Positions 333 through 62,705 of a stretch of 64,000 nucleotides of DNA are shown in pieces. How positions within the stretch are numbered: the stretch's first letter is position 1; every line of letters starts with the position of its first letter. Source of the DNA: Patescibacteria group bacterium (GTDB lineage Bacteria > Patescibacteriota > Minisyncoccia > Phycocordibacterales > UBA1550); NCBI GenBank assembly GCA_038057125.1, contig JBBUDU010000001.1, forward strand, positions 997 to 64,996, given 5' to 3'. Below the pieces are notes generated by a model that had not been told where the DNA came from, searched no databases, and worked only from the letters and a program-made list of their open reading frames with translations. The position numbers were made by a program, and so were the translations under genes.

Positions 333-381
333 TTAGTCCACACATCGTCATAGTTGCATCGATGGCGTGTCTTGATATACT
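333..381 (+). promoter_or_regulatory. Candidate promoter: TTAGTCCACA box variant plus extended -10 TGATATACT
   Basis: Box variant at 333-342 has a one-base insertion relative to TTATCCACA. TATACT at 376-381 is preceded by TGA. Same layout as the promoters at 42.3, 49.1 and 62.7 kb. Confidence 0.35.
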
Positions 382-382
382 T

Positions 383-537
383 ATACCATCCCCAATTAAC
401 CTATACATAATAACTCAAAAATTTCTGCTATGCCATTGGAAAAATCTTTCAAAATATCCCGATATTCCTCAATATTTTTCCTTCGGCTCGCTAGAAATTA
501 TTGAGTTCTTTATGTAAGAGTTAATTGGGGATGGTAT
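383..537 (+). repeat. Long rod-like inverted repeat, probable structured 5' leader of the 560 gene
   Basis: Perfect 18-bp arms ATACCATCCCCAATTAAC (383-400) and GTTAATTGGGGATGGTAT (520-537). Further internal pairing (GGAAAAAT/ATTTTTCC). Lies between the predicted -10 and the ATG at 560. Confidence 0.5.
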
Positions 538-559
538 TAACGAAATCGCTACTTACACC

Positions 560-1405
560 ATGGAATCCATTTTTGAAACATTTAAAAAAAGCGTGTACAA
601 TCCGGCTTTTTATAAAAGCGTCGCAGATGCTCCTTCTTCTGGGGCATTTCGATACTATATAAAATTTTCGCTCATCCTATCACTTTTAATGACGGTGGCA
701 CTCGGAATATTTTTTGTGCCTCAAGGGGTTTCTTTTATAAAAGAGCGCGCGCCGGATTTGGTGAAGACGTATTACCCAAAAGAGCTCGTGGTGAATATTG
801 AAAATGGAGTTGCAACGGCAAATGTCCAGATGCCATATTTTATCCCGCTTAAAAAAGTGTCTGGAGAGACTGAAAGCGGTGTGATGCAAAACATTCTCGT
901 CATTGACACGAGCGCGGGTTTTGATAAAAAGAAGTTTGAAGAATACAAAACATACGCGCTCCTCACTGGTACGGATATCATAACAAGGAATGATAATGGA
1001 CAGATTACGATTCAATCTTTGCGCGGATCACCGAAAATAACTATAAACCAAGATACACTCTTGTCGTGGGTCGAAAATGTTCGTAGCTACATGGGATATA
1101 TTGTTGTAGTAGGTATCATCGTTACATTTATGGCTATGGTGTTTGGGTACTTGATGTATCTCATACCGCTCTTTTTGTTTACTCTTATTCCTATTGTCAT
1201 CTCGTATGTTAAAAAGTCACCTATTTCCTACGCATCTGCGTACAAGATGAGTTTGTACGCAATCATTCCGGCGCTTGCCCTGAAGACATTGCTCAACACA
1301 CTGGGAGTATTCTCAATGCCAGCGTACTTCACCTTCCTTGTATTCATGCTTGTCATTGCGCTCAACATGCGCGAACAGGAACAACCGAAGTTGTTTAATA
1401 ATTAA
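560..1405 (+). CDS. Polytopic membrane protein, DUF1189-like
   Basis: 281-aa ORF. The N-terminus FETFKKSVYNPAFYKSV followed by TM helices resembles DUF1189 proteins. Four to five hydrophobic helices. Confidence 0.35.
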   Translation: MESIFETFKKSVYNPAFYKSVADAPSSGAFRYYIKFSLILSLLMTVALGIFFVPQGVSFIKERAPDLVKTYYPKELVVNIENGVATANVQMPYFIPLKKVSGETESGVMQNILVIDTSAGFDKKKFEEYKTYALLTGTDIITRNDNGQITIQSLRGSPKITINQDTLLSWVENVRSYMGYIVVVGIIVTFMAMVFGYLMYLIPLFLFTLIPIVISYVKKSPISYASAYKMSLYAIIPALALKTLLNTLGVFSMPAYFTFLVFMLVIALNMREQEQPKLFNN

Positions 1406-1851
1406 TTCGCCTTTAATTTTTTCCAGATTGTGATACCTAGCGCAAAAAGTAGCGCCGAAATAACAGCCGACACAATGCAGTAAATGCAGAATGCGCCGAT
1501 TTTGAATTTTTGGATATAAATAAAGTATAGCGACGATAAAAAGCCGAGTGTTGTTGCGACAAGGATGAGTTTTCCAATTAGAGCTTTTTTTGTATCAGCG
1601 TAGAGAATGGCGAGAAATCCAATGCCGAGGTAAAAGATAACACCCCACGCAGCAAGAGGCACTCCAAAGAGCACCGAGTACGGAGATTTTGAAACCGTGT
1701 CGCATCCACTCGTGATGAAGCAGGGGATTGGCGTGCCTGAGATGCGCTTTGCGAGAAGGAATGCCGAGTCGGTGAAGCCAACAAGCGCGAGCGCGGTGAC
1801 TGTCCAAAGAATCCAGTTGGGGATATTACGGATTTGCGATTGCATATTCAA
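1402..1851 (-). CDS. Vitamin K epoxide reductase (VKOR) family protein
   Basis: Four TM helices. Loop cysteines CFITSGC with SPYSVLFGVPLAAWG, and the CIYC (CXXC) motif in the last helix. Confidence 0.7.
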   Translation of the reverse strand: MNMQSQIRNIPNWILWTVTALALVGFTDSAFLLAKRISGTPIPCFITSGCDTVSKSPYSVLFGVPLAAWGVIFYLGIGFLAILYADTKKALIGKLILVATTLGFLSSLYFIYIQKFKIGAFCIYCIVSAVISALLFALGITIWKKLKAN

Positions 1852-2482
1852 TGAGCGCTTTTAGCTCGTTAGCGGAGCGCGGATTGGTTGATATTTTCCC
1901 GTTGATAAAAAAAGTTGGAGTACCCCTCACCATAGAAAGTTTCCCGCTCTCCATGTCGCGTTCAACCTTGCTCTTGACTCCACCGCTCTTTACATCGGTT
2001 TTGTATTGTTCAATGTTAAGACCAAGTTTTTGCGCGTAACCTTCAAATGTGATTTGTGCCTTTGCGTCCTCTGACCAATCACGCTGGTTTTCAAAAAGCA
2101 TGGCAGCCATTTCCCAGAACTTGCCTTGCTTACCGGCCGCTTCCGAAGCGTATGCCGCATGTGTGGCATTTTTATGAAAAGGAAGAGGAAAGTGGCGATA
2201 AGTGAATGAGACGCGGTCTTTGTATTCCGCAAACATTTCTTCAATGAGTGGGTAGTACGCACCGCACGCAGGGCACTGAAAATCGCTGTACTCAACTATT
2301 GTTGCTTTTGGCGTTTTTGAACCCTTTGTCCAGTCGCTTTGGTCGAGAGGTAGATCCATTTTGCCGTCTTTGCGCGGAAGCTCCGTGCTTGGGCCTGTGG
2401 CTATTTGATATGCGCCGATTGCGGTGACAATTACCACAAGCGCCGCTGAAAACCAAATAATAATTCTTTTTTGTGTATCCAT
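1826..2482 (-). CDS. DsbA-family thiol:disulfide oxidoreductase, membrane-anchored
   Basis: N-terminal anchor helix. Thioredoxin-fold active site FQCPACGAYYP (CPAC). Overlaps and is co-oriented with the VKOR gene. Confidence 0.7.
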   Translation of the reverse strand: MDTQKRIIIWFSAALVVIVTAIGAYQIATGPSTELPRKDGKMDLPLDQSDWTKGSKTPKATIVEYSDFQCPACGAYYPLIEEMFAEYKDRVSFTYRHFPLPFHKNATHAAYASEAAGKQGKFWEMAAMLFENQRDWSEDAKAQITFEGYAQKLGLNIEQYKTDVKSGGVKSKVERDMESGKLSMVRGTPTFFINGKISTNPRSANELKALIEYAIANP

Positions 2483-2613
2483 TATTCTTTGATAGTATCA
2501 ATGTTCTGGGAACATGGCAAGTTTAGCACGCAAGCAGAGCAATAGTGAGCTATCGTGCACTATTGCTTAGGACGTATTTGGGAAGTTTCGCGTTTGTCGT
2601 GTAGAATAGAAGA

Positions 2614-11486: not shown

Positions 11487-11557
11487 TTGTTTATTATTCT
11501 TTTTTGTGATAAAAAGAATTAGGTTCTTTGATCTTAATTTACGAAGGAGGCAACACA

Positions 11558-12196
11558 ATGAAGACACCGTTCATCGTTCTAGACGGAATGGATGGTTCAG
11601 GCAAAGGAACTCAGGTTGCATTGCTTAAGGAACGGCTTTTGCGGGAAGGGGCACATGTACATTTTACGCGTGAACCCGGTGGAGCAGAGTTTTCTGAGGA
11701 CATTCGTTCGATTATAAAGTCTGCACGTGGTGCAAGCGCCGACATAACAACAATATTCCTTTTATTTTGGGCGGCGCGCAATGAGTGGATGAAGAGAGAC
11801 GTTATTCCTGCACTGGAAAATGAAGTACCAGTTTTTACCGACAGGTGCGACTCATCAACTTTTGCATACCAAGTGTGTGCGGAAAAACATCCAGAACTCG
11901 CAGAGTGGTGTTTCGAAATGCGAGATCGAGTTTTCGGTAGAGCAAAACCCTCGCACTACATTTTCCTTGAAGTGCCACCAGAAGTTGCCCGCAACCGCGC
12001 CATGTCTGATAAAAAACGCGACTCATGCTACTTTGACGAAAAGTCACTTGGGTATTACGAGAGAGTCACGCAGGGATTTAAGGATTTCGGTCTGTCGGTC
12101 GGCTCTACTTCTTTTGTTGATGGGATGCGCGACCCCGCAGTTGTTCATGAAGACATTTGGCGTATTGTTGCCAAAGAGTTGAGGATTGTACGATAA
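11558..12196 (+). CDS. tmk: Thymidylate kinase
   Basis: P-loop DGMDGSGKGT, TREPGG and DRCDSSTFAYQ. GGAGG ribosome-binding site 7 nt upstream of ATG 11558. Confidence 0.8.
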   Translation: MKTPFIVLDGMDGSGKGTQVALLKERLLREGAHVHFTREPGGAEFSEDIRSIIKSARGASADITTIFLLFWAARNEWMKRDVIPALENEVPVFTDRCDSSTFAYQVCAEKHPELAEWCFEMRDRVFGRAKPSHYIFLEVPPEVARNRAMSDKKRDSCYFDEKSLGYYERVTQGFKDFGLSVGSTSFVDGMRDPAVVHEDIWRIVAKELRIVR

Positions 12197-12246: not shown

Positions 12247-12284
12247 CTTTTGTGCTCCGCATGTTATGATTGTTTTGTATCATC

Positions 12285-12923
12285 ATGACTGCGAAAAAAG
12301 CCCCCCTTATTATCATTGATGGCATCGACGGCTCCGGAAAGACCACGCAAACAAACCTCCTCAAAGAGCGTTTGTCTGACGGGCAAGTCGTTTTCACGCG
12401 CCAGCCCGGCGGAACGCCCCTTTCGGAAATGATTCGCGATGTTTTTTCTTCCGCTGAAGCAGTGGAGGCGAGCGCGCGGACTCAGTTTTTTCTTATGTGG
12501 GCATCCCGCACCAACTGGCTCGAAAAAGTGGTGATTCCAAACATAGAAAGAGGAATACCAGTAATCTCGAGTCGCGGTGACTCGGCTACATATGCCTATC
12601 AGGTCCACGCGCGCGAAGCGACCGACCTCGAAGAAGAGTTTTGGCAAATGCGTGAATTTGTAATGGGAAAACACAAACCAAAGATGCACATTATCATTGA
12701 TGTTTCTGCAAAGGATGCGCGCCACCGAATGAATGCCGACAAAAATCGCACAAAGTCGCTCTTTGATTTAAAACCGCTTGATTTTCACGATCGCGCGCGA
12801 GCAGGGTTTCGAGCTTTTGCCGAGCGACTACCAGGTGAAGTAACTATTATTGACGGTTCACGTGACAGAGATGTTATTCACAAGGAGGTGTATGATATTG
12901 TTTCCTCCCTTTGCGGCTGGTAG
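12285..12923 (+). CDS. Second thymidylate-kinase-like dNMP kinase (paralog)
   Basis: P-loop DGIDGSGKTT and TRQPGG. SRGDSATYAYQ replaces the DR(Y/H/C) motif, with Asp changed to Ser. Confidence 0.7.
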   Translation: MTAKKAPLIIIDGIDGSGKTTQTNLLKERLSDGQVVFTRQPGGTPLSEMIRDVFSSAEAVEASARTQFFLMWASRTNWLEKVVIPNIERGIPVISSRGDSATYAYQVHAREATDLEEEFWQMREFVMGKHKPKMHIIIDVSAKDARHRMNADKNRTKSLFDLKPLDFHDRARAGFRAFAERLPGEVTIIDGSRDRDVIHKEVYDIVSSLCGW

Positions 12924-19173: not shown

Positions 19174-19279
19174 GGATTACGGACCATGTGTTAATTGGTT
19201 GGGAATTATCTACAACCTTTCTGTATTCTATATTCCGACATGATACAATGAAAATGCATACTATATGAGGGAGAAAAAA

Positions 19280-19828
19280 TTAAAGACCAAAATGTTTTCG
19301 TGCAACATCCTCGTTCTCTATTTCAGTTGCAGTGATAACAGAAATATACTTTCTCACGCCAAAGCAATCTCCTAAAAAATCTACCTCCTTTTTACAATCA
19401 AATGGTGTGATAAAAACAGATTTTTGATACGAAAAACAGCTCATGTCCCTAAGCATTTTGTTTAATGAACGCCGCGCGCCGACTTTATTTTCTGGGATAT
19501 CAAACATAATTATTCTCCATTTTTTATCCCATTTTTTATGCTCCTTTAATCCGTTCAACTTTAGATTGTTAAGGCGCGCTTCCCTGCGGCCTTTTTCTGT
19601 GAGAGATGCATAAATTTCTCCACCCCTCTGCTCTATTTTTATGAGCCCTCTTTTTTGCAAGGTTCTTGCTGAGCGTCTTATTTTTAATTTTATTTTTCCA
19701 TCCTCGATGTCTACATATTTGAGTAATTGCGCCAGATTTGGCATGGCGAGAATCATAACAAACGCTCCTGTCACGAGTAGGCTTGTGAGAATGACTTGCG
19801 CTACATCCCCTTTGTTGTATTTTTGCAT
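19280..19828 (-). CDS. PaaX-like protein (wHTH plus Cas2-like fold), paralog 1
   Basis: WDKKWRIIMFDIPENKVGARRSLNKMLRDMSCFSYQKSVFITPF matches the PaaX-family core W-G-W-x-V-x-F-x-x-PE...R...L...G...Q-SVF. Hydrophobic N-terminal segment. Paralog of 26838-27374. Confidence 0.55.
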   Translation of the reverse strand: MQKYNKGDVAQVILTSLLVTGAFVMILAMPNLAQLLKYVDIEDGKIKLKIRRSARTLQKRGLIKIEQRGGEIYASLTEKGRREARLNNLKLNGLKEHKKWDKKWRIIMFDIPENKVGARRSLNKMLRDMSCFSYQKSVFITPFDCKKEVDFLGDCFGVRKYISVITATEIENEDVARKHFGL

Positions 19829-19874
19829 GATAATTCTAAACTAGATGATCATATCTATAATAATAACTCCAGTA

Positions 19875-20312
19875 TACCTATTTTGTCCTATCGGTGTAAA
19901 TAGGTATAGTAGGAAAGTTGTGGGTAAGCGAAGGATGCGAGCGAGCCACTTGTGGTGGTTTGTAAATTTGTCGATTGCCCATGTATCCTGTCTACCTATT
20001 TTGTCCTATCGGTGTAAATAGGTATAGTAGGAAAGTTGTGGATAAGTGAAGGCGGGGATAAGGTGGTGTGGCTGAAGTGCTGTCTGAAGGTTTTTTGCGT
20101 GATTCTTTTTACCCTGTGTTTCTACTGACACTCTTCTTTTTTATGTACCTATTTGTTCCTATCGGAGTGAATAGGTACATAGGGGGGAATTAAGAAGAAT
20201 TAGATGTGGTAATTAAGATTAGATGTGGTTATGCGGGATCCTTCCTACCTTATGTTTCTACTGACACTCTTCTTTTTTATGTACCTATTTTGTCCTATCG
20301 GTGTAAATAGGT
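19875..20312. repeat. Four dispersed copies of a 30-nt hairpin core with pairwise-conserved flanks
   Basis: Core ACCTATTTTGTCCTATCGGTGTAAATAGGT at 19875-19904, 19994-20023 and 20283-20312. Variant ACCTATTTGTTCCTATCGGAGTGAATAGGT at 20147-20176. Copies 1 and 2 share a 29-nt 3' flank; copies 3 and 4 share a 36-nt 5' flank. Confidence 0.9.
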
Positions 20313-20582
20313 ACATAAAAGAAAAAAATAAAAAAAGAGGGGAATGAATGGACCCCGCCGCAAGCGGTGAGGAATTCCTCCGATTAAAATAAAAAAAGAG
20401 GGGATTTAAAATGGGTCAGATTGGGTGGGTGAGCAGGCTTCTCTCCCTCACTTGGACGTAGGGTTTCCAAGTTGGGGGATTTTGGCTTCGCCAAAATCCC
20501 CCATGCACTTGTCCACAGTTACCCGCGCCATATGGCGCAATTTTTCTTTTTACATGATACAATAAAAGCACATAGTATATTT

Positions 20583-26793: not shown

Positions 26794-26837
26794 ACTGTAC
26801 ACGTATAAAAACCTATAGTACTATATACGTGTACAGT
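26794..26837. repeat. Palindromic element abutting the start codon of PaaX-like paralog 2
   Basis: Arms ACTGTACACGTATA / TATACGTGTACAGT around AAAACCTATAGTACTA. About 70 percent identical, in register, to the element at 27387-27436. Confidence 0.85.
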
Positions 26838-27386: not shown

Positions 27387-27436
27387 CCCCATGCACACGT
27401 ATAGGAACCTATAGGTTCCTATACGTGTGCATGGGG
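27387..27436. repeat. 50-bp perfect palindrome centred on CTATAG
   Basis: CCCCATGCACACGTATAGGAACCTA|TAGGTTCCTATACGTGTGCATGGGG. Confidence 0.95.
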
Positions 27437-27523
27437 GCATGATTGGTTTGTGGTATGAATGATTGAGGGGATATTGGAGGTTGATTTTTGTGCGCCTACT
27501 AATGTATGGTATTCTGAAGAAAT

Positions 27524-42325: not shown

Positions 42326-42370
42326 AGTTATCTACACTCCTTGCTTCCTTTATGAATTATAGTGTATAAT
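42326..42370 (+). promoter_or_regulatory. Promoter with an upstream AGTTATCTACAC box
   Basis: Box at 42326-42337. -35 TTGCTT at 42341-42346, 18-nt spacer, TATAAT at 42365-42370. Leader of ~110 nt to ATG 42484. Confidence 0.55.
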
Positions 42371-42483: not shown

Positions 42484-43200
42484 ATGAAAAACAAAAAAGT
42501 AAGTATCATTTCCATCGCCCTAGGTGTGTTTTTTGCAGCCGTTATAGCTCAAGCTGCTACGACAATTGGTCTTAATATCAGTACCGATGGCAGTATCACT
42601 GCAAGCAGCACAACAAACCAGCTTGTGTTAGGTATTTCTCCTGCTACGGTTACCATTACCTCCACAGCCCCCGCAGCTGCACGTACATACACCTTGCCGG
42701 ACAATGCATCTGCAAGTGTAAACTTTGTATTAGCTCCAGTCTCCTCAACCTCAACAGAAGCATTATTTTCAAGCGCTACGGCAGGAGCACCGGCTTTCCG
42801 CGCAATTGCGCTTACTGATTTGCCTACGCAAACAGGAACTAGTAGTATTGCTATGTCAAATTCTCCAACTTTTGTAACACCAACACTTGGTGTCGCTGCA
42901 GCTACCTCAATTGCGATTGGTGGTGGTACCGCGGTTACAAGGATTTCCGTTTACGCGCCAAGTTTGACACCAGCAGCTACCGCAGCTACCATTCAAACAG
43001 TAGAACAAACATTTACTGTAACTGGCCTTACCACGGCAGATAAGGTCTTTGTAAATGGTCCGGCACCGACTGCTCTCTGCGCAGCTACGACATTTAGAGT
43101 TTCTGCGGCAGACACTTTGGCGGTTGGTTTTACGGTATTGACCGCAGTAGCATGTACCCCCGCAGCTGGAGTGTATAATATCGTAGCGATCCGAAACTAA
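42484..43200 (+). CDS. Secreted Thr/Ala-rich protein, unknown function
   Basis: Signal peptide ending AQAATT. Low-complexity beta-type sequence. Two Cys near the C-terminus. Confidence 0.55.
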   Translation: MKNKKVSIISIALGVFFAAVIAQAATTIGLNISTDGSITASSTTNQLVLGISPATVTITSTAPAAARTYTLPDNASASVNFVLAPVSSTSTEALFSSATAGAPAFRAIALTDLPTQTGTSSIAMSNSPTFVTPTLGVAAATSIAIGGGTAVTRISVYAPSLTPAATAATIQTVEQTFTVTGLTTADKVFVNGPAPTALCAATTFRVSAADTLAVGFTVLTAVACTPAAGVYNIVAIRN

Positions 43201-43233: not shown

Positions 43234-44202
43234 ATGCCTATGTATAAAAAAACAAAGCTCCTTCTTGTAGTGCTTGCGTTGCTTATCTTTCCTACGGTTG
43301 GCATTGCGGCCACAAATGATTTTGTTGCCAACAGCAATATCACGGTATCCGGAGTAACATTTGGCTCAATTACGGCTGATATGCTTATCCTCAGTGGCTC
43401 TACTGCCGAAAGCTGGCTGTTTAATAGCGGTGCTTTTAGCGCCACTAACCCAGGATCGGCGTTTCAGGTTGGGTCATCAGACAGCGCGGTTAAGTCTATT
43501 CAAGTGAGCCAGAGTGGCAGTACCCTTGTCTGTAGTGAAAATACCATTCCGGGAACATCATACGCCACTTTGCCAACAGCATCAGGGACATACACCATAA
43601 GCCCATCCGCGACTACCGCGTGCACGAGTTTGTGTACGGCACTTTCTAACACTGCTTCGTACAATGCCTTCCCGACGTGTGGAGCACTCAGTTGTAGTGC
43701 TGGATATCAAATATCAGGCTCTGGCGCGGGTGCTACCTGCGTTGCTAACCCCGGCGGGGTGGCGATGTTGCCAGCTTGTGGCGCAGGGTATAAATTGTCC
43801 GCTACTCTTAGTTGTGTACCTATTACTGTTTCTAATGTTAATATGATTCCCGGTTGTATGCCCGGTTACAAATTTAGTACAACTACAGGTCAGTCTTGTG
43901 GCACGAGTGGCACTGTCGCACCCTCTGATGGGTCACGCGATGGTATACTGTCTGCTGTTTTTATAAAAAACTTATCCTTCCGTATGTCGTCAGATGATGT
44001 GCGCCGACTTCAAGCACTCCTTGCCTCCGACAAGGAGGTGTACCCAGAAGGACTTGCTACGGGCTACTATGGGGCACTTACTAAAAAGGCGGTTGGGAAA
44101 TTCCAAATTAAGCACGGCGTCGTGTCCTCATCCGAAGCACCAGGGTATGGTATGGTGGGTCCTCTGACACGAGCAAAATTGCTGGTGGTTTTTGGGAAAT
44201 AA
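43234..44202 (+). CDS. Secreted protein with Cys modules and a C-terminal peptidoglycan-binding domain
   Basis: Signal/anchor LLLVVLALLIFPTVGIAA. Three C-x-x-GY-x-(F/L/I)S...C modules. PG_binding_1-like tail DVRRLQALLASD...GYYGALTKKAVGKFQ...GMVGPLTRAKL. Confidence 0.65.
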   Translation: MPMYKKTKLLLVVLALLIFPTVGIAATNDFVANSNITVSGVTFGSITADMLILSGSTAESWLFNSGAFSATNPGSAFQVGSSDSAVKSIQVSQSGSTLVCSENTIPGTSYATLPTASGTYTISPSATTACTSLCTALSNTASYNAFPTCGALSCSAGYQISGSGAGATCVANPGGVAMLPACGAGYKLSATLSCVPITVSNVNMIPGCMPGYKFSTTTGQSCGTSGTVAPSDGSRDGILSAVFIKNLSFRMSSDDVRRLQALLASDKEVYPEGLATGYYGALTKKAVGKFQIKHGVVSSSEAPGYGMVGPLTRAKLLVVFGK

Positions 44203-44298: not shown

Positions 44299-45324
44299 CT
44301 ATTCCACTTCTTTTAGTTTTGCGCGAATTTCTTTTAGAATTGTCGCGCGAACCGCTTTGTTTTCTTTGTCCGCGAGGAAGATGCACGCCGAATCATATCC
44401 GCGCCCGACTTTGATGTCGCCGTAAGCATACGAAGAGCCGGACTTTTGCAAGATTTCAAATTTTTCTCCAAGACCCAAAATTTCGCCTTCTTGCGAAATG
44501 CCTTTGCCGTGCATAAGATCAAACTCTGCTTGTTTGAATGGTGCCGCAACTTTATTTTTGATAACCTTCACGCGTGTACGGCTACCGACGACATCGTCAC
44601 CTTTTTTGATTTGCGCGATACGGCGTATGTCGAGACGAACCGAAGTATAAAATTTAAGCGCCTTACCGCCCGGCGTTGTTTCAGGATTGCCAAACATTAC
44701 GCCAATTTGCATACGGATTTGGTTGATAAAAATAACAATAGTCTTTGACTTTGCAACTATTGCGGTTAACTTGCGAAGCGCTTGGGACATCAGACGCGCT
44801 TGTTTGCCCACATGGTGCGCGCCCATGTCGCCTTCTATCTCATCTTTTGGGGTAAGTGCCGCAACAGAGTCAATAACGATTACGTCCATTCTTCCCGAAC
44901 GCACAAGACTCTCCACTATTTCAAGAGCTTGTTCTCCGTTATCGGGTTGCGAAATGAGAAGCTCATCCACGTTCACACCAAGCTTCTTTGCGTATTCAGG
45001 GTCCATCGCATGCTCTGCGTCAACGAATGCACAAATACCACCAAGTTTTTGCGCTTCAGCAACCACGTGAAGTGTGAGCGTTGTTTTTCCAGAAGACTCT
45101 GGTCCAAAAATTTCGATGATTCGCCCGCGAGGAAGCCCTCCCACGCCGAGCGCATAGTCGAGACCTATTGAACCAGTCGAGATTGCGTCGATACCCACCT
45201 TTGGCTTGTCTCCAAGCTTCATAATGGCGCCTTCGCCAAACTTTGCCTGAATAGCCTTGATTGTGTCCTCGATATTTGCTCCCATCTCTTTTTTTTCGCT
45301 CACTTTCTTTTTTACTAATACCAT
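44299..45324 (-). CDS. recA: Recombinase RecA
   Basis: [33 protein letters not shown] (Walker A) and the typical L1/L2 regions. Confidence 0.95.
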
Positions 45325-48017: not shown

Positions 48018-48089
48018 ATAATATTTATATATAGTAACAGATAATAGCTTTACTCCAAAGGGTTAATTCATAAAAGACAATTACAATCA

Positions 48090-48118
48090 TTGACTTTGTT
48101 CAGATGTCAGTTATATAA
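48090..48118 (+). promoter_or_regulatory. Sigma-70-type promoter of the 48168 gene
   Basis: TTGACT (48090-48095), 17-nt spacer, TATAAT (48113-48118). Confidence 0.55.
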
Positions 48119-48167
48119 TGGACAAACATTACGAAGTTCGCAATAAAGGACACTAAAAGGACATATA

Positions 48168-48980
48168 ATGGACTACAAAAAAGACATTAAAGACATTGGA
48201 CTCACTAGCCACAGAGCCCAGAATGGAATGGAGACTTTTGGTATTACACTATCAAAAAAGTGTGAACGCCTTGCGACAGCTGTGTACCTCGTTACCAACT
48301 TTCTCTCGGACACAGAACCACTTAAATACCGGCTCCGAACATTATCGATTGACTTTGTCCGAGACGCTTTTTTTGTAAAAAATAGCAGTCGACCAACCGA
48401 ACCCAATGTCCTTGAAGGACTGCGTGCAAACATACTCGAAACCCTATCTCTTTTAGAGCTAGCATTTGTAGCAGGTCTCGTATCCGAGATGAATTTCACT
48501 ATTTTGAAGAGGGAATATGCTTCGCTTCGAGATGCTGTTGAAGTTAAAAGAGTATCGCGCGAATCACATAGCGACAGTATTTTAGGTGTCAATTTCTTTG
48601 CTCCACAGTTTCGAGCGGGATCTTCTACTGAACCATCCGCAACTAACACCTTTTCTAAAGGACATTCTATCGGACAAACTCCCAACACAATGTCCGATAG
48701 TTCCTCAAGGTCTGACCTTAAGAAACTTGCGCCAAAGGTCGGACCTTTATTTGCATCCACACATCGCAATCGTGCTACCACGGACATCGCTAAAGAATCC
48801 CGTCGTAGCAACATTTTAAAACTAATAAAGGACAATCGAGAAGTTACTATAAAGGACATTGCCTCACGTTTCCCGGAGCTTTCCGAAAAAACTATTCAAC
48901 GAGAGCTTGTCATTATGTCCGATACCGGCGTCCTAAAGAAGTCAGGAGAACGACGCTGGTCCCGCTACACGATAGCGTAA
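48168..48980 (+). CDS. Putative regulator with a C-terminal DeoR-type winged HTH
   Basis: C-terminus ILKLIKDNREVTIKDIASRFPELSEKTIQRELVIMSDTGVLKKSG. The antisense ORF 48173-48859 is Ser/Arg-rich shadow sequence. Confidence 0.55.
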   Translation: MDYKKDIKDIGLTSHRAQNGMETFGITLSKKCERLATAVYLVTNFLSDTEPLKYRLRTLSIDFVRDAFFVKNSSRPTEPNVLEGLRANILETLSLLELAFVAGLVSEMNFTILKREYASLRDAVEVKRVSRESHSDSILGVNFFAPQFRAGSSTEPSATNTFSKGHSIGQTPNTMSDSSSRSDLKKLAPKVGPLFASTHRNRATTDIAKESRRSNILKLIKDNREVTIKDIASRFPELSEKTIQRELVIMSDTGVLKKSGERRWSRYTIA

Positions 48981-49112
48981 ACCTCCGTTTCCTTTTTATT
49001 TGTTGCTTTTTACGTCTTTTTCTGCTATATTTAACCCGTGTGGAGTGATGTCGGTTTTGGTGGTTTGCTCTACAGATTTCGTTGATTTCTATGAGCAAAT
49101 TACTTTTCCACG

Positions 49113-49160
49113 AGTTATCCACACATATACTTTGCAGGTTCATTCTACACCGTATATAAT
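49113..49160 (+). promoter_or_regulatory. Promoter with an upstream AGTTATCCACAC box
   Basis: TTATCCACA at 49115-49123. -35 TTGCAG at 49132-49137, 17-nt spacer, TATAAT at 49155-49160. Confidence 0.6.
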
Positions 49161-49569
49161 GTATGTAAGTTCAGTGCGTAGAATATTTCTACCGCACTGG
49201 ATTTAGGTGTAACGAATAAAAGTGTTCGCACTTTTGTTTGTTATCCATTAAACAAGAAAGCTCCCGGCTTACGATAGATTGCAGCAAGGGGAGAGATCAT
49301 TGAAAACTAGGTCCGGTGCATTTAGTATTGAATCTCAACATTCGATATTCAGTTTTGAATGCACCGGGTCTTGCATAGGAAATCGCATCACACAAAACGG
49401 TGCATTTTCAGTTTTCAATGGCCTCGACCCGAGTGGTCGAAGCACTACCGCATGACCGACAAAACGACAGAGACAATTAACTTAATTAAAGTGTGTTACG
49501 AAAATCGTGAAGCCCTTCGAAGAAGGGCTTCACGAAACACACTGTGCGATTAGAAATTTACTATTAAAT

Positions 49570-52500
49570 ATGAATAAAATTATTTCATCAAAGTCTGCAA
49601 AAATTGCTGCAGGTTTGGTAGGAGTTATTGCTGGATTTGCAATGGTTGTATCAACCGCATCAGCATACACATTCTCTACAAACTTGAAGCAGGGCAGCAC
49701 CGGTGCTGATGTAAAAAACCTTCAAATGGTTTTGAACATGAGTGCTGACACACAGGTTTCAGTATCAGGCGCAGGTTCTCCAGGAAATGAGACCTCAACA
49801 TTTGGTCCTGCAACAAAGAAGGCAGTTATCAAGTTCCAGAATAAGTACGCTTCAGACACTCTTGCACCAGCTGGACTTACAGCAGGTACAGGATTCGTCG
49901 GCCCGCTTACTCGCGCAAAGTTGAACACGATGGACAGCACAACAAGCACAACAGGAATGGTTCCTGGATGTACTTCACTCGTAGGCTTTAGCCCAACGAC
50001 AGGAGCGTCATGCGCATCAGGCGTAGTGACAACCACGATCCCTACTGGATGTACTTCAACAGTTGGCTTTAGCTCAACTACCGGAGTATCATGCGCGTCA
50101 GGCGCATCGACAGTTTCATCAGGTCCTATTTCAGTAAGTCTTGCAAACACCAACCCTGCTGCAGCTGCAGTAGTGGCCGGTCAGGCAACAGCTGATCTCG
50201 CGCACTTTGCGTTCTCTGGTACAGGTACAATCACGAATGTAAAATTGATGCGTATTGGTATTTCATCAAACTCTACACTCTCAAACGTGTACCTCTACAA
50301 TGGTAGCGTTCGTGTATCAGATGGCGCTTCGGTGAACAACACAGACAGCTCGATTACCTTCAACAACTTGAGTATTGCAGTAAATGGCTCACTCACACTT
50401 TCAGTGCGTGCTGACATTGCTGCGGTTACTTCAGGTCAGATTGTAGGTGTACAGCTTACTGGCTACACAGTTTCAGGTTCTACAACCATGACATCTGCAA
50501 GCATTTCAGGAAACTTCATGAATATTGCAAGTGCTACATTGGCAGGAATAACAGCTAGTTCAACAGGAAGCGTTACAGCTACTGTAAACGCTGGTACAAT
50601 GGGTCAAACATTTTGGTCAGGTACTGTAGGTGTATCAACACGCGCAGTATCACTTAAAGGCGCAGCCTTCAAGTTCATTGGTTCAGCAACATCAGATGCT
50701 GCTACAAATCTTAAACTTTATGTTAATGGTTCCCCAGTTGGATCTACAGCCACTGTGGACCCTGTAACAAATCGTCTTAGTTTTGACTTCGGCTCAAGCC
50801 CAGTAACATTAAACACCGGCTCACAAACACTTGAGCTTCGTGGAGATGTTGTAAAGGGTTCAAATCGTACTATTCAGTTCAATCTTGAGAATGCTAGCGA
50901 TCTTATCGTTATGGATTCACAGCTTGGCGTAAATATTGCGGTTACAGCGCCTACAACATCAGGCTTTGCAGCACAGAACGGTACAACCGTATCTGTTTCA
51001 ACTGGTTCCGTTGTTACAACGATTGACCCTAGTTTCACATCTCTTACAAACGTAACTGGTGGAGCAACAGGAGCAGTTATTGGAAAATTCAAGCTTCAGG
51101 CATATGGTGAAGATGTAAAGGTTTCGACACTTGGAGTGACGGTAACCGGTGCAGGAGCAACACCTGCTTACAGTGGTGTGAACAATGTTTCGCTCTTCTA
51201 CAACGGTAGTCAGATTGGTTCAAGTCAGAATTCGGCTACATCAACTGTACTTTCGTTCACACTTGGATCATCATTGATTATCTCAGCAGGAACTACAGGT
51301 ACACTTGAAGTTCGTGCCGACATTCAGTCACCTCTAAACGTAAACTATACCGCAGGTACAGTTACGGTTGCATTGAATATTGGCTCAGCAAACGGTCAAG
51401 GACAGTCTTCATCAGCAACGATGAATGTTCCTACCGCAACAGTTACAGCTAACAGCTTGACTATTGCTACCGGCGCGCTTAGTATCGCAATGGCTCCTGG
51501 ATATTCTGGTGCTCAAACAGTGAACCCAAACACAGCTAACGTGAAATTGGGCTCATTTGTTCTTCAGAACACAAGCACTTCAGAGGGCGTTCGTATTACG
51601 AACCTCGCTGTTGGCTTGACTGCAACAACAACGAACTTGAACAACTTTAGAACTACAGAAACTTCAGGATCAGGCGCCATCGGCATCGCTCCTCAAGCAA
51701 CAAACAACTTCTCAGTTAACTTCACGCTCGCTCCAGGACAGACCAAGACGATTGACATTATGGGTGACCTTGGTGCCGCAACTTCAGGTGTAATTATTAC
51801 GACACTTCTTCCTACAGCTGTAGGCGCAAGTTCAAACGTAACAGTAACTCCTGGTTCAGCAACAACAGGTCAGACACTTACAATCCAGACTGGTTCTGTA
51901 GCTGTTCCTACACTCAACGCTGCTCCAGCATCACTTGCTGCGCAGTTCGTTGTTGGTGGAACACAGAATCTTGGAATCTCTCAGTACAACTTTGTAGCTA
52001 CAAATGGTGTAGCAACAATTTCTGAGTTGAAGTTTGCAGTTGGAGGTACAGCGTCGACATCGACAACAACTCCATTCACTACAATAACTGTAGGTGGTCA
52101 GTCAGCTCCAGTAGTTTCTGGTGTTGCTTACATCACTGGTCTTAACATCAGTGTTCCTAACAGTCCTGCAGGTGCAAACGTATCTGTTCAGGCATCGTTT
52201 GGTTCAGTTGGTACAAACGGAATTCCGTCAAATAAGACGGCTACAACGTCTCTTACCTTCATGAAGTACACAATCGGTGGTATCACAACATCAACAAGCA
52301 CGCTCGCTGTTGTTGGAAATACATACACACTTGTTGGTACAAAACCTACGGTAACTGTTCAGGATTCATCAGACGCACTTCTTAACGGCCTTGTAAAGGT
52401 TGCAGAAGTTACCGTGTCAGCTGATGCTGCCGGCGACTTGAAGCTTACTGCATTGCCAATTAGCGTGACTTCAACAGGCGTTGTTACTGCCGCAACAGGC

Positions 52501-52821
52501 ACAAACAACATTGTTGTGAAGGATACTGCTGGTAATACTATCGTTACAACGAACGCTTCGCTCGTGGTAACAGCAGGAGGAACTGGCACAGCTACTATCG
52601 CATTCACAGGTGGTGACACGATTACTGCAGGGTCTTCAAAGATCTACAGAATCTACGTAACCGCTGCAACAGTATCTGGTGCCGTAAACACAACATCTCT
52701 TTCTACCAAGCTCGGTGTATCTTCATCGTTCACTTGGACAGATCAGAATGGCGGTGAAGCAGGTATCACTGGTGCTAACATCTACAACTACCCAGACACA
52801 ACATCAGTTATCACTAACTAG
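49570..52821 (+). CDS. Large secreted cell-surface protein with an N-terminal peptidoglycan-binding domain (S-layer-like candidate)
   Basis: Signal peptide MNKIISSKSAKIAAGLVGVIAGFAMVVSTASA. PG_binding_1-like GSTGADVKNLQMVLN...ATKKAVIKFQNKY...GFVGPLTRAKL. Two Cys modules. About 900 aa of Thr/Ser/Gly/Val/Ala-rich beta-type sequence. Confidence 0.7.
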   Translation: MNKIISSKSAKIAAGLVGVIAGFAMVVSTASAYTFSTNLKQGSTGADVKNLQMVLNMSADTQVSVSGAGSPGNETSTFGPATKKAVIKFQNKYASDTLAPAGLTAGTGFVGPLTRAKLNTMDSTTSTTGMVPGCTSLVGFSPTTGASCASGVVTTTIPTGCTSTVGFSSTTGVSCASGASTVSSGPISVSLANTNPAAAAVVAGQATADLAHFAFSGTGTITNVKLMRIGISSNSTLSNVYLYNGSVRVSDGASVNNTDSSITFNNLSIAVNGSLTLSVRADIAAVTSGQIVGVQLTGYTVSGSTTMTSASISGNFMNIASATLAGITASSTGSVTATVNAGTMGQTFWSGTVGVSTRAVSLKGAAFKFIGSATSDAATNLKLYVNGSPVGSTATVDPVTNRLSFDFGSSPVTLNTGSQTLELRGDVVKGSNRTIQFNLENASDLIVMDSQLGVNIAVTAPTTSGFAAQNGTTVSVSTGSVVTTIDPSFTSLTNVTGGATGAVIGKFKLQAYGEDVKVSTLGVTVTGAGATPAYSGVNNVSLFYNGSQIGSSQNSATSTVLSFTLGSSLIISAGTTGTLEVRADIQSPLNVNYTAGTVTVALNIGSANGQGQSSSATMNVPTATVTANSLTIATGALSIAMAPGYSGAQTVNPNTANVKLGSFVLQNTSTSEGVRITNLAVGLTATTTNLNNFRTTETSGSGAIGIAPQATNNFSVNFTLAPGQTKTIDIMGDLGAATSGVIITTLLPTAVGASSNVTVTPGSATTGQTLTIQTGSVAVPTLNAAPASLAAQFVVGGTQNLGISQYNFVATNGVATISELKFAVGGTASTSTTTPFTTITVGGQSAPVVSGVAYITGLNISVPNSPAGANVSVQASFGSVGTNGIPSNKTATTSLTFMKYTIGGITTSTSTLAVVGNTYTLVGTKPTVTVQDSSDALLNGLVKVAEVTVSADAAGDLKLTALPISVTSTGVVTAATGTNNIVVKDTAGNTIVTTNASLVVTAGGTGTATIAFTGGDTITAGSSKIYRIYVTAATVSGAVNTTSLSTKLGVSSSFTWTDQNGGEAGITGANIYNYPDTTSVITN

Positions 52822-52992: not shown

Positions 52993-53018
52993 GCTTGCGC
53001 TTATCTCCAGAGGTCCCC

Positions 53019-53818
53019 CATAGGACTCCTCTACATACATAGGGGAGTCCTATGTAATTCTATGTGATTGCGTGCTATACTGCTAGGTAATCATGCAAAG
53101 AAAATTTTCGTTTTCAGTCGATGAATATTATCATCTCTATAATCGCGGAACGGACAAGCGTGTCATATTTATGGATGATGAGGATTACGAGCGGTTTATC
53201 AGCCTTATGTTCGTTTGTAATTCAGATCAGAGTATAATCTTTCGCGACATCCCCATAGGACTCCCCTATGTATTTGAGAGAGGTGATACTTTGGTTGATA
53301 TTGGAGCATATTGTTTAATGCCAAATCATTTCCATTTCCTAATTCGAGAAAAAATAGATGGTGGAATCACAAAGTTTATGAGTAAACTTATGACTGCGTA
53401 TTCTATGTACTTTAATAAAAAATATAAGCGCACAGGCAGCCTGTTTGAGGGGTGCTTCAAGGCAAAGCATGCCAATACTGACGAATATTTGAAGTATCTT
53501 TTTGCATATATACACTTGAATCCAGTAAAAATTATTGATCCAAAATGGAAAGAAAATGGAATTAGCAACAAAGCAGTAGCCAAAGAATACCTTGCAGAAT
53601 ATAAATATTCGAGTTATCCGGAATATTTGGGTGTTTTGCGTGAAGAGGGGAAGATCATTAATAGGGCAGCCTTCCCAGAGTACTTCGAACAGCCGCAAGA
53701 TTTTGAAGGATTTATTAAGGATTGGATTTCATTCGCTGATAGCCAGTAGCAAGCAAGTCCCCTTAGCCCCCATAGGACTCCCCTATGTGTACATAGGGGA
53801 GTCCTATGGGGGCTAAGG
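53019..53818 (+). mobile_element. RAYT-type unit: HUH/Y1 transposase gene flanked by related hairpins
   Basis: Left hairpin CATAGGACTCC (53019-53029) / GGAGTCCTATG (53044-53054). Right 58-nt palindrome at 53761-53818 has a 28-bp stem and the same CATAGGACTCC core. Confidence 0.65.
53093..53749 (+). CDS. REP-associated tyrosine transposase-like protein (IS200/Y1 HUH family)
   Basis: HUH motif YCLMPNHFHFLI. Catalytic Tyr context FAYIHLNPVK. 218 aa. Confidence 0.75.
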   Translation: MQRKFSFSVDEYYHLYNRGTDKRVIFMDDEDYERFISLMFVCNSDQSIIFRDIPIGLPYVFERGDTLVDIGAYCLMPNHFHFLIREKIDGGITKFMSKLMTAYSMYFNKKYKRTGSLFEGCFKAKHANTDEYLKYLFAYIHLNPVKIIDPKWKENGISNKAVAKEYLAEYKYSSYPEYLGVLREEGKIINRAAFPEYFEQPQDFEGFIKDWISFADSQ

Positions 53819-53903
53819 CAAGACATTAGTAAAAAGTTATCCACAGGTTGGTTTTAGAAAATTAGGGGATTGGGGTGGAGGTTGGTAGAATAGAGATAAT
53901 TTT

Positions 53904-55166
53904 ATGGCTGAAAATATGGAAAATAAAAAAGATGATAAGAGCATTTTGAGACATTTTAAAATATTTTTGAATTATTTGAAGTATGTAGTTTTGGCTTGTT
54001 TGATACTTTTTGTTGGGTTGCTAATTATTCCAGCGTTTGGGTCCAGTATGCTTATTGGGGCACTGAAGGCCGTAGCACCATTTACAATAACAGTGTTGTC
54101 AATGGCTGGCCCACATTCAGTATATGATTGGGCGATTGTGCTTAATGCTCTCATCGTGTTTGTTTGGCCATATATCGCTTTTATTGTTTGGGCTATTGTG
54201 GATAGTCGAAAATTTAAAGTACTGGGAATAAACACACATCCGTATCTTTGGGGAGTAGGGATGATCTTCCCCCTGATCCTTGTTGTTTTCCCTGTCTACA
54301 TCGTTCGCCGTAATATTACATGGGGAAAAGAGATCAACGCAAAAGAGATTGTTGGTGATATTTCATATGTAGTAAGTAAAAAAACAAGTTTTAGAAAAAA
54401 ATTAAAATGGTTAGTCGTTCTCTGTATATTCCTTGCTATTGAGGGTTATGTTTTTTATACGAATGAAGCACGCACCATAGAAATACTTAATCAAGAACAA
54501 GTAGTGAGGAATCACGCAGCAGAACTTCTCAAACTTTCCAAGAGAGAGAGGGTAAACTATAAAAATCTTCCCCCAGCGCCTGAATTAGTGCGCCCTATTG
54601 ACCTTAAGGAGGCGTTTGGTTCACTTGATGCCCAAAAGGAATTTCTCGCAGATCTTGAAAAAACTATTGCTGCAATTAATAAAGACTACAAAGATGTTGA
54701 TAACTGGATTCAGCTTGGTCTTACTCGGCATGTGTTAGGTGATAATATTGGCTCTAGCGAGGCATGGGAATACGCAAAATTACTTGACCCAGAGAATTAT
54801 CAAATACGGGAAAACCTTGGCGATTTATATCAATCTGACCTAAAAAATTATGTGAAAGCGGAAGAGAATTTCAAAAAGGTTATTATACTCAAGCCTGATT
54901 ACTCGCGTGGGTATAGTAACCTCGTACATTTGTACGCTAACTCAATGAAAGAAAAAGCAGTGCAAATTCCGGAGGTATACAAAAAGGGTATTATTGCAAA
55001 CCCTAACGATGTTGACCTAATGGTGGGCCTCGCCGACTACTACAAAGACGAGGGTAGTATTGCTGAAGCAAAAAAGGTATACCAACAAGCGCTTGTGGTA
55101 GCCACGCGAACAAAAGACAGCTGGCTTATTAAAAGTCTTGAGAGAAAACTTTTGGGGCTGAATTAA
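53904..55166 (+). CDS. Membrane protein with a four-TM N-terminal module and C-terminal TPR-like repeats
   Basis: N-terminal module shared with 55192-56286 (DSRKFKxxGxNTxPxLWGVGMxFPLILVxFPxYxxRRNITW). The C-terminus has TPR-like helices (AEENFKKVIILKPDYSRGYSNLVHLY). Confidence 0.55.
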   Translation: MAENMENKKDDKSILRHFKIFLNYLKYVVLACLILFVGLLIIPAFGSSMLIGALKAVAPFTITVLSMAGPHSVYDWAIVLNALIVFVWPYIAFIVWAIVDSRKFKVLGINTHPYLWGVGMIFPLILVVFPVYIVRRNITWGKEINAKEIVGDISYVVSKKTSFRKKLKWLVVLCIFLAIEGYVFYTNEARTIEILNQEQVVRNHAAELLKLSKRERVNYKNLPPAPELVRPIDLKEAFGSLDAQKEFLADLEKTIAAINKDYKDVDNWIQLGLTRHVLGDNIGSSEAWEYAKLLDPENYQIRENLGDLYQSDLKNYVKAEENFKKVIILKPDYSRGYSNLVHLYANSMKEKAVQIPEVYKKGIIANPNDVDLMVGLADYYKDEGSIAEAKKVYQQALVVATRTKDSWLIKSLERKLLGLN

Positions 55167-60445: not shown

Positions 60446-60455
60446 CTCTTTAAAT

Positions 60456-60677: not shown

Positions 60678-60689
60678 TATAACCCCGAA

Positions 60690-61316: not shown

Positions 61317-61397
61317 CAAATTCTGAACCAACAGGTTCACGTCATGGACGAAGACTCTTGGACGAAAACAAAACTTTAACAATTAACAATAAATATT

Positions 61398-61793
61398 ATG
61401 ACAGAAGAAAAAAAAGACGTAGTAATTCCAGCAAAGTTCAAAGACCTTGTTGAGAAAATCGAGACAATGTCGGTTCTCGATCTTCACGAGCTCGTAAAGG
61501 TGCTCGAAGAGAAGTTTGGCGTGTCTGCAGCGGCAGTCGCAGCAGCTCCAGTAGCAGGCGCAGGCGTAGTGGCAGAAGAAAAGGACTCGTTTAATGTAGA
61601 ACTTACAGCATCAGGTGAGACGAAAATCGCCGTTATTAAGGTGGTAAAGGAGGTCCTCGCCCTTGGTTTGAAAGAAGCAAAGGATCTCGTAGATGCAGCT
61701 CCTTCAATGCTTAAAGAGGGAATGAAGAAGGCAGAAGCAGATGAATTCAAGAAGAAGCTTGAAGCAGCAGGTGCTAAAGTTACTTTGAAGTAA
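61398..61793 (+). CDS. rplL: 50S ribosomal protein L7/L12
   Basis: Ala-rich hinge [14 protein letters not shown]-terminal domain [24 protein letters not shown]...[12 protein letters not shown]. Confidence 0.95.
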
Positions 61794-61949
61794 CTTTAGC
61801 GACTGCTGGGGAGGGGGTCGGGGAACGGTAGTTCCCCGTGGAGGAGAGCAGTGAGCTCACCAGAGCGAGCGTTGAGAACCGTGGGTTCTCAAGGAGGCGT
61901 TTCGCCGACGGTTGGTGCGAAGGTTACTCTTAAGTAACTTTAGCGACTG
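61770..61949 (+). repeat. 36-bp direct repeat of the rplL 3' end flanking a GC-rich structured segment
   Basis: 61770-61805 and 61914-61949 match at 32 of 36 positions, offset exactly 144 nt. Both encode GAKVTLK-stop. Confidence 0.9.
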
Positions 61950-61955
61950 TTTTGA

Positions 61956-61992
61956 AAAAGTGGGGGTTGCCGACGGCAACCCCCACTTTTTC
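61956..61992 (+). terminator. Intrinsic terminator after the second rplL-end copy
   Basis: AAAAAGTGGGGGTTGCC-GAC-GGCAACCCCCACTTTTT. Confidence 0.85.
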
Positions 61993-62024
61993 TTTTGTAC
62001 ATATAAAATGCTATAATTCTCGCC

Positions 62025-62645
62025 ATGGATACTCTAGGAAAATTATTTGGAAGTCAGGCGCGGGTGAAGATTTTGCGCTTGTTTATCTTGAACCCTCTCG
62101 AAGTATACGATGTGGCGATGGTCGCAGAAAAGAGCAAAGTGTCCGTTTCAGAGACAAGGCGCGAGCTGACACTCATTAAATCTTCCGGAATTTTAGTTAA
62201 TAAATCATTTTTCAAAGAAATAATATCAAAGCGGAGTAAGAATAGTAAACCCAAAAAGAAGCGTGTAGTGGGCTTTCAGCTTAAGACAACATTTCCGCTA
62301 CTTTCTGCCATTAAAAACCTTGTTGTTTTAGGGACGCCGTTGAACCGTGATGAAATCGCCCGTCGTTTAAAAAATGTTGGAAAGATTAAATTTCTAGCTA
62401 TTTCTGGCATCTTTATTGATGAACCCGAGGCTCGCGTAGACGTGCTTATTGTGGGAGATGGGCTTAAAAAGCGCTCTATCGAGAATGTTTTACGCACTAT
62501 CGAGGCCGAAATAGGAAAAGAGCTTTCATATGGAGCATTAGAAACCCCGGAGTTTCTTTATCGCGTGAGTGTGTACGACAAATTTGTCCGTGATGTTCTC
62601 GATTTCCGCCACGACCGAATTATCGATAAACTTGGGGTCGAATAG
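62025..62645 (+). CDS. Hypothetical protein with an N-terminal ArsR-like wHTH
   Basis: LFGSQARVKILRLFILNPLEVYDVAMVAEKSKVSVSETRRELTLIKSSGIL. 206 aa. Confidence 0.5.
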   Translation: MDTLGKLFGSQARVKILRLFILNPLEVYDVAMVAEKSKVSVSETRRELTLIKSSGILVNKSFFKEIISKRSKNSKPKKKRVVGFQLKTTFPLLSAIKNLVVLGTPLNRDEIARRLKNVGKIKFLAISGIFIDEPEARVDVLIVGDGLKKRSIENVLRTIEAEIGKELSYGALETPEFLYRVSVYDKFVRDVLDFRHDRIIDKLGVE

Positions 62646-62658
62646 TTTTATTGGTGAA

Positions 62659-62705
62659 AGTTATCCACAGGGTGCTTGCGGGGCGCCCCCTCTTAACGGT
62701 ATAAT
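62659..62705 (+). promoter_or_regulatory. Promoter with an upstream AGTTATCCACAG box
   Basis: TTATCCACA at 62661-62669. -35 TTGCGG at 62676-62681, 18-nt spacer, TATAAT at 62700-62705. Confidence 0.55.

Follow-up and report, generated by a model that had tools for sequence, protein, structure and literature searches.

A DnaA-box-like element at a fixed position upstream of promoters for surface and membrane proteins in Paceibacteria

In a 64,000-nucleotide (nt) stretch of DNA from a Patescibacteria group bacterium (GenBank assembly GCA_038057125.1, contig JBBUDU010000001.1, positions 997 to 64,996 of the forward strand; hereafter the window), the 9-mer TTATCCACA, which is the canonical high-affinity DnaA box, recurs in front of promoters of genes for secreted and membrane proteins. 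Analysis of the window together with 1.26 Mb of DNA surrounding recA in 80 related species genomes indicates that this cis-element is real, a conclusion that we hold with very little reservation. The promoters share the architecture gAGTTATCCACA, N6-8, TTGnnn, N17-18, TATAAT, in which the -35 hexamer is weak, and the regulon is dominated by cell-surface and membrane proteins in Paceibacteria. We lean towards the reading in which DnaA would recognize the position-dependent box and activate this envelope regulon, a proposal for both the reader and its positive effect that draws on the form and placement of the sites.

Four perfect copies of TTATCCACA were found in the window, compared to 0.56 expected, and this number was reached in none of 100 dinucleotide shuffles. 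The copies lie at 49115-49123, 53837-53845, and 62661-62669 on the plus strand and at 20037-20045 on the minus strand, exactly where a previous sequence-only reading of the window had placed them, and the longer AGTTATCCACA is common to all three plus-strand copies. All four are located within the 5,674 nt (8.9%) of the window that lie outside long open reading frames (ORFs), for which the chance with four random sites is approximately 6e-5 (calculated by hand). Boxes with one mismatch exhibited weak enrichment in the window (22 compared to 14.9 expected).

For the sites at 42328, 49115, and 62661, the claimed distances from the start of the box to TATAAT (37, 40, and 39 nt, respectively) proved correct, and the distances from the end of the box are 28, 31, and 30 nt, respectively. 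The TTGCnn -35 elements that had been noticed between the box and the -10 element at these sites follow the box after 4-8 nt and are separated from the -10 element by 17-18 nt. The features of the box promoters are as follows.

49113..49123, plus strand: box AGTTATCCACA of the S-layer-like gene, with the perfect 9-mer at 49115-49123
49132..49137, plus strand: -35-like TTGCAG, 8 nt past the box, with a 17-nt spacer to the -10 element; read from the sequence
49155..49160, plus strand: -10 element TATAAT, starting 31 nt past the box end, the modal distance
49161..49569, plus strand: long 5' leader, structured, containing the boxA-like GATCATTGAAAAC (49295) and GGTCGAAG (49435); elements conserved in relatives
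49570..52821, plus strand: large secreted S-layer-like protein with a signal peptide, a PG_binding_1-like segment, and a T/S/A/G-rich region
62659..62669, plus strand: perfect box AGTTATCCACA upstream of the gene for a membrane protein with an MscS transmembrane (TM) helix; conserved at orthologous genes
62676..62681, plus strand: -35-like TTGCGG
62700..62705, plus strand: -10 element TATAAT, 30 nt past the box end
62864..63556, plus strand: membrane protein with an MS_channel_1st_1 TM-helix domain
42326..42336, plus strand: variant box AGTTATCTACA with one mismatch, followed by -35 TTGCTT at 42341-42346 and TATAAT at 42365-42370, 28 nt past the box
42484..43200, plus strand: T/S-rich secreted protein; a PG_binding_1 protein is encoded next, at 43234-44202
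53835..53845, plus strand: displaced-class box AGTTATCCACA, separated from the -10 element by 40 nt, one helical turn more
53883..53891, plus strand: extended -10 element TGGTAGAAT; read from the sequence
53904..55166, plus strand: TPR-containing membrane protein

The geometry of the 53837 site differs from that of the other sites: the box is 40 nt from the extended -10 element TGGTAGAAT, and no good -35 element is present.

In the 80 related genomes, TTATCCACA occurred 87 times, compared to about 10-14 expected, and 30 shuffled 9-mers occurred 2-30 times each. In a de novo comparison of intergenic with coding DNA, the four most intergenic-enriched 9-mers, TATCCACAG, GTTATCCAC, AGTTATCCA, and TTATCCACA, were all derived from the box, and TTATCCACA had 75 copies in the 0.19 Mb of intergenic sequence, compared to 16 in the 1.13 Mb of coding sequence.

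The boxes are also held at a preferred distance from the -10 element. An exact TATAAT started 28-33 nt past the box for 49 of the 91 perfect boxes (window included), with counts of 3, 5, 10, 19, 8, and 4 from 28 to 33 nt and hence a peak at 31 nt, whereas the shuffled 9-mers had 0-2 such partners. Five further boxes had TATAAT at 37-41 nt, and a minor class is placed at 39-41 nt, one helical turn further out. In the opposite box orientation, scattered single TATAAT matches formed a flat background. Perfect boxes in the promoter geometry exceeded one-mismatch boxes by 49 to 10, although 27 one-mismatch variants are possible. The upstream flank of the box favoured G next to the 9-mer (-1, 75%), then A (-2, 67%) and G (-3, 47%). 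When the promoters were anchored on the -10 element, TTG at the -35 position (-36 to -33) was 69-93% conserved (T, 93%), with little else.

These results indicate that a -10/-35 pair with the 17 +/- 1 nt spacing of sigma-70-type promoters lies downstream of the box. If transcription starts approximately 7 nt past the -10 element, as predicted from its position, the box would occupy about -54 to -44. The element is thus enriched in intergenic DNA, keeps a preferred distance to the -10 element, and is not clustered at an origin, the three points on which the sequence-only reading had staked its proposal. That reading had assigned the box to the position of an activator site or UP element; the position fits an activator site, but the UP element was discarded, since the box is an almost invariant 11-mer with four C/G positions rather than an A/T-rich degenerate sequence.

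Other identities for the motif were also rejected. The -35 element of an alternative sigma factor would be expected 16-18 nt from the -10 element; the box stops 28-33 nt before TATAAT, and the -35 position is taken by a separate TTGnnn. An oriC-type cluster of DnaA boxes does not fit the window, in which the boxes are 4.7-29 kb apart, no dnaA is found, and the GC skew shows no switch. Sites for Spo0A, WalR, PhoP, or extracytoplasmic-function (ECF) sigma factors on a Bacillaceae chromosome were dropped, as the annotation and the RecA neighbours point to Patescibacteria.

Despite a G+C content of 44%, the window does not come from a Firmicute. Its RecA, encoded at 44299-45324 on the minus strand, has its closest relatives among the GTDB species genomes in Candidatus Yonathbacteria and other Paceibacteria/Parcubacteria (70-93% identity) and was matched on Hainich groundwater contigs derived from 0.1-µm filtrates. 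The housekeeping proteins of the window score well under the family cut-offs, which would be expected of a deeply branching lineage. No tRNA or tmRNA was found by ARAGORN in the window or in 24 loci, and no rRNA signature sequences were found in the loci examined.

For the 49115-type promoter, a box with at most one mismatch was present 27-34 nt from the -10 element in 45 of the 59 loci covering the region. In the other loci, four perfect boxes at 35-41 nt, one inverted box at the same distance (locus L008), and three one-mismatch boxes were observed, so that 53 of 59 loci have a box when looser spacing, inversion, or mismatch is counted. The flanks of the orthologous boxes are unalignable. 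The order of the locus is nearly universal: recA, a small gene, ftsK, and then a divergent gene for a 270-amino-acid regulator and the box promoter, which is followed by a leader of 100-600 nt and a protein of 650-1,200 amino acids.

Other box promoters are conserved as well. For the MscS-TM-helix gene (62864), the box is kept in L060 (as TTTTCCACA), L063, and L078 and in at least six metagenome contigs. For the TPR gene (53904), the ortholog in L006 has retained the box together with its unusual spacing of 40 nt, to TGATACAAT. The L006 gene related to the 42484 gene has a perfect box. Metagenomes were scanned with the pattern AGTTATCCACA-N28-33-TATAAT, which matched at least 120 contigs of unassigned taxonomy, with chance matches among them.

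The genes downstream of the boxes in the window encode secreted or membrane proteins, as had been claimed. Members of the S-layer-like family carry a signal peptide and a PG_binding_1 domain, have a long region rich in T/S/A/G, and often contain a coiled coil. The other genes downstream of boxes encode small secreted T/S-rich proteins, a ComEA-like protein, MscS-like and TPR membrane proteins, and two RAYT transposases. An N-terminal hydrophobic (signal or TM) segment was seen in approximately nine of ten independent downstream families, compared to 33% of 1,131 background ORFs (binomial p of approximately 3e-4, calculated by hand). The box was not found at the nusG-rplK, rplJ-rplL, or rpsF-ssb-rpsR promoters in the window, indicating that it is not a generic feature of strong promoters.

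Among the metagenome matches listed, the downstream proteins of at least 20 contigs are homologous to these same families, and further box promoters precede genes for type IV pilin-like proteins (at least four), LexA-like proteins (at least five), and mraZ or rsmH (at least three); a few lie at dnaA or dnaN, on contigs resembling other phyla. The envelope regulon proposed from the sequence alone is therefore upheld by the share of signal and TM segments and by the ribosomal-protein promoters without a box, but it is not pure, as shown by the two RAYT genes and by the LexA-like and MraZ genes in metagenomes.

Two of these outlying groups have features of their own. The RAYT gene of the window (53093-53749) is inserted between the S-layer-like and TPR genes and is flanked by repetitive extragenic palindrome (REP)-like sequences (CCCCATAGGACTCCCCTATG...) within the region 53016-53810, and the RAYT genes of L025 and L045 have their own box promoters. 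For the metagenome LexA-like genes (L116, L120, L140, L170, and L182), the box is 32-33 nt from TATAAT; some of these genes have long C-terminal extensions, and tandem GGTTCGG repeats lie between the box and TATAAT, on contigs of unassigned taxonomy.

DnaA had been named as one candidate reader, and the details of the sites strengthen this candidacy without proving it. The 9-mer fits the DnaA-box definition TTATNCACA / TTWTNCACA. The recurrent change that is tolerated in the promoter geometry is A3 to T (TTTTCCACA, five cases), and single cases include TTATGCACA; these variants fall at positions left open in TTWTNCACA and so fit genuine DnaA boxes. The AG 5' flank is that of R4 in E. coli oriC (GAGTTATCCACAG; confirmed in 4,696 E. 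coli genomes, where this sequence lies between mnmG and mioC), and R1 (TTGTTATCCACAG) shares the G. Beyond the boxes that the search pattern had selected, three box clusters found incidentally contained 13 boxes, 12 of them with the same AG flank; one of these clusters (L172) lies between the 3' end of dnaA and dnaN. In addition, a lone asymmetric site of 9-11 bp fits a monomer of DnaA domain IV.

Single boxes bind B. subtilis DnaA in vitro (PMC4447404), and high-affinity boxes upstream of E. coli nrdAB have been proposed to activate by stabilising RNA polymerase (PMC8203912, a review). For the present promoters, the position of the box outside the core promoter, the weak -35 element, and the second class one turn away suggest activation through contact with RNA polymerase. 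In the proposed mechanism, a single DnaA would bind the high-affinity box through domain IV, and the box-bound DnaA would help RNA polymerase at promoters with a weak -35 element in a class-I-like manner, as proposed for nrdAB, such that cell-surface synthesis would be tied to the amount of DnaA.

Several points weigh against this reading. Known DnaA regulons have box clusters at variable positions, and one box held strictly at one position is what would more typically be seen with a dedicated activator. No dnaA was found in the window or the 80 genome loci by tblastn with an approximate B. subtilis DnaA query; with the same query, matches in the metagenome loci were confined to contigs resembling other phyla. 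An oriC was likewise absent from the window and the 80 loci, and neither dnaA nor oriC was seen on any contig that could be assigned to Patescibacteria. Six of the 59 loci covering the S-layer promoter lack a box there, although one of these (L028) is masked by Ns, and the box of L008 is inverted. Approximately 50 of the 59 promoter-linked boxes represent one orthologous promoter, leaving approximately ten independent families, and the best-conserved box adjoins a conserved gene for a DeoR-like regulator. As all the genome loci are recA neighbourhoods, the counts are not genome-wide, and the spacing was preset in the metagenome scan, which therefore is no test of spacing.

A dedicated transcription factor of Paceibacteria other than DnaA might instead read the 11-mer, with the identity to the DnaA box reflecting convergence or deliberate competition with DnaA, and would act as a classical activator of the envelope regulon. 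The strict single site, the fixed position and orientation, the functionally coherent gene set, and the 49-to-10 excess of perfect over one-mismatch boxes would all suit such a factor, and in the sequences searched no evidence on DnaA comes from this lineage. On the other hand, an asymmetric 9-11-bp site without a second half-site is unusual for helix-turn-helix (HTH) dimers and typical of DnaA domain IV, the variants and the AG flank coincide with those of genuine DnaA boxes, and cells with DnaA would bind the perfect boxes anyway. Taken together, we consider a dedicated factor unlikely, though a contender to be taken seriously.

It is also conceivable, if rather improbable, that DnaA binds the boxes without activating, either as a repressor that blocks alpha C-terminal domain (alpha-CTD) or UP contacts or because the boxes mainly titrate free DnaA on the chromosome. 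DnaA represses many promoters, and titration by high-affinity boxes has been documented in E. coli (PMC8203912; PMC12371093); the repeats at 19868-20052 in the window, moreover, have a box just downstream of a promoter-like site, in the position of a repressor. Titration alone, however, would need no fixed distance, fixed orientation, or one-turn periodicity relative to the -10 element, the box overlaps neither the -35 nor the -10 element, and the weak -35 hexamers fit dependence on an activator.

The gene next to the best-conserved box offers a third candidate reader.

48168..48980, plus strand: gene for the DeoR-like winged HTH (wHTH) regulator, directly upstream of the 49115 box promoter, with its own TAAAGGACA cluster at 48071-48858

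Of the 81 sequences searched, 67 retain the order of HTH gene, box promoter, and S-layer-like gene, and the protein has a C-terminal HTH_DeoR match, with homologs that are annotated as DeoR family and occur in Patescibacteria only; a PDB sequence search with the protein gave no match. TAAAGGACA, the most over-represented 9-mer in the related genomes (190 compared to 14 expected), is tied to this gene, with 179 of 194 copies within 350 nt of it and direct repeats in its own promoter, and is probably the regulator's own operator. Since genomes whose S-layer promoter has no box also retain the gene, and the usual targets of wHTH regulators are repeats rather than a lone asymmetric 11-mer, we see only a slim chance that this protein reads the box, although it may co-regulate the adjacent surface-protein gene.

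Finally, chance, a compositional artefact, or a mobile repeat carrying the 9-mer is a practically negligible explanation: one of the four window copies (20037) does lie inside a local repeat and one-mismatch boxes are barely enriched in the window, but the shuffles, the intergenic restriction, the spacing peak, and the conservation with unalignable flanks at RecA identities of 70-93% refute it.

The transcribed leaders downstream of the boxes contain recurrent elements as well. The leader at 49161-49569 (approximately 400 nt) folds far better than its shuffles (z = -8.46, with 346 nt folded), and Rfam returned no family in the whole window at the gathering threshold or in 48900-49700 at E <= 10. 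GATCATTGAAAAC, which resembles the boxA antitermination element of Gram-positive rRNA operons (at 49295 in the window), recurs 150-250 nt past the box in approximately 17 related leaders. GTCGAAAC is 72-fold enriched in the transcribed leaders of box promoters (L007-L085 and the metagenome loci L095-L206; at 49435 and approximately 62760 in the window), is usually found as the loop in a short hairpin (TTAGTTTTGTCGAAACTAA, AAAGTGTCGAATACTTT), and is also present in MscS-like and pilin leaders. GTCGAAAC may be a shared RNA element of the same regulon.

Building on activation by DnaA, a broader proposal can be made, which we put forward tentatively, as possible rather than probable. In Paceibacteria, which are largely uncultivated and have tiny genomes and few regulators, DnaA would serve as the master activator of the surface proteome through one high-affinity box at -54 to -44, with the S-layer-like protein, pilins, an MscS-like channel, and T/S-rich secreted proteins as targets. 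This would couple envelope production to the potential for replication initiation, and the leaders with their boxA-like site and GUCGAAAC hairpin loop would complete a so far undescribed multi-layer module of envelope expression.

The remaining box-like sites of the window fit the promoter geometry less well or not at all.

20509..20517, plus strand: TTGTCCACA, possibly a variant box, with the extended -10 element TGATACAAT (20558-20566) 43 nt away; weak, as no orthologs were available
20583-26702, plus strand: giant surface protein gene, downstream of the possible variant box TTGTCCACA
20037..20045, minus strand: perfect box in a repeated 67-nt unit, whose second copy, at 19919-19927, reads TTACCCACA
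19206..19214, plus strand: variant TTATCTACA in intergenic DNA between convergent genes, 32 nt from TGATACAAT; no gene follows, and the site is doubtful or a remnant
333..342, plus strand: TTAGTCCACA, 33 nt from TATACT, upstream of a 51-amino-acid ORF and a DUF1189 gene; doubtful

The 20037 box had been counted with the others, but it lacks the upstream-of-promoter geometry and sits in the 67-nt unit; read on the plus strand, it is just downstream of a promoter-like TTGTCC-N16-TATAGT. The 19206 variant is box-like, as noticed, but has no gene downstream on its strand, and TTAGTCCACA, which had been listed as a near-variant, is two changes from the box.

The same region contains two kinds of repeats. 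A promoter-like module of 44 nt (ACATGATACAAT...) is present twice, at 19238-19281 and 20552-20595, 1.3 kb from each other; each copy is preceded by a box variant, at differing distances, and one is directed into the 3' end of a gene that converges with it. The array at 19868-20317 comprises four 32-nt palindromic units (TACCTATTTTGTCCTATCGGTGTAAATAGGTA) of two subtypes, one of which has the promoter-like TTGTCC-N16-TATAGT and, after it, an inverted DnaA box. Palindromes related to these units, at 27406-27437 and 35412-35443, lie upstream of ileS and of an M16 peptidase gene.

Other features of the window and the related loci were observed in passing. Two paralogous 180-amino-acid proteins with a PaaX central / Cas2-like domain, encoded at 19280-19828 (minus strand) and 26829-27374 (plus strand), flank the giant gene at 20583-26702, which encodes a 2,039-amino-acid beta-propeller/FN3 surface protein; these paralogs may be local regulators. 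The isoleucyl-tRNA synthetase (27524-31069) has an inserted histidine-phosphatase (phosphoglycerate-mutase-like) domain at approximately residues 511-690 (approximately 29050-29600). Two tandem thymidylate kinase paralogs (11528-12196 and 12270-12923) lie within a dTMP-metabolism cluster with thyA, dCMP deaminase, and MazG. In L006-L085, the density of GGGTGGTTT / AAACCACCC in intergenic DNA is 25 times that in coding DNA (38 compared to 8 copies).

Gene regulation in the Candidate Phyla Radiation (CPR) is almost uncharted because most of its members are unculturable, and the element described here defines a regulon by sequence that can be read directly from metagenome-assembled genomes. It could predict strong native promoters and surface-protein genes, which would be useful for the emerging genetics of these organisms, and because the box is identical to E. 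coli R4, heterologous DnaA could be used for in vitro tests. If DnaA reads the box, this would be the clearest case of fixed-position, class-I-like activation by DnaA of a large regulon unrelated to replication; if it does not, a new regulator would compete with DnaA for identical sites, which would be equally interesting.

DnaA is well known as a transcription factor. In full-text searches, no report was found of the element in Patescibacteria or upstream of S-layer genes. Compared to oriC clusters and datA-type titration sites, which have the same box and extended flank (for example, the dnaA-dnaN cluster in L172), the boxes described here are unclustered, are not near dnaA, and are locked to the promoter geometry. 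Like class I activator sites (for example, CRP at -61.5) and UP elements contacted by the alpha-CTD, the box is placed just upstream of the -35 element, which is weak here, and has a second allowed position one helical turn away. It differs from CRP-type sites in being an asymmetric single site centred near -49 instead of a palindrome at -61.5 or -41.5.

In the known systems of transcription control through DnaA boxes, such as E. coli dnaA and nrdAB, B. subtilis dnaA, sda, and ywlC, and Caulobacter gcrA, ftsZ, and podJ, the high-affinity box is the same 9-mer, TTATCCACA, and in nrdAB, as here, it is located upstream of the promoter. The present system differs from these promoters in that one box, a putative DnaA site, is used at one position and in one orientation, conserved across a class of Patescibacteria, and in that its targets are mostly surface proteins rather than replication or cell-cycle genes. 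A single box at one promoter position that defines a surface-protein regulon across a CPR class would be a new variation on DnaA control.

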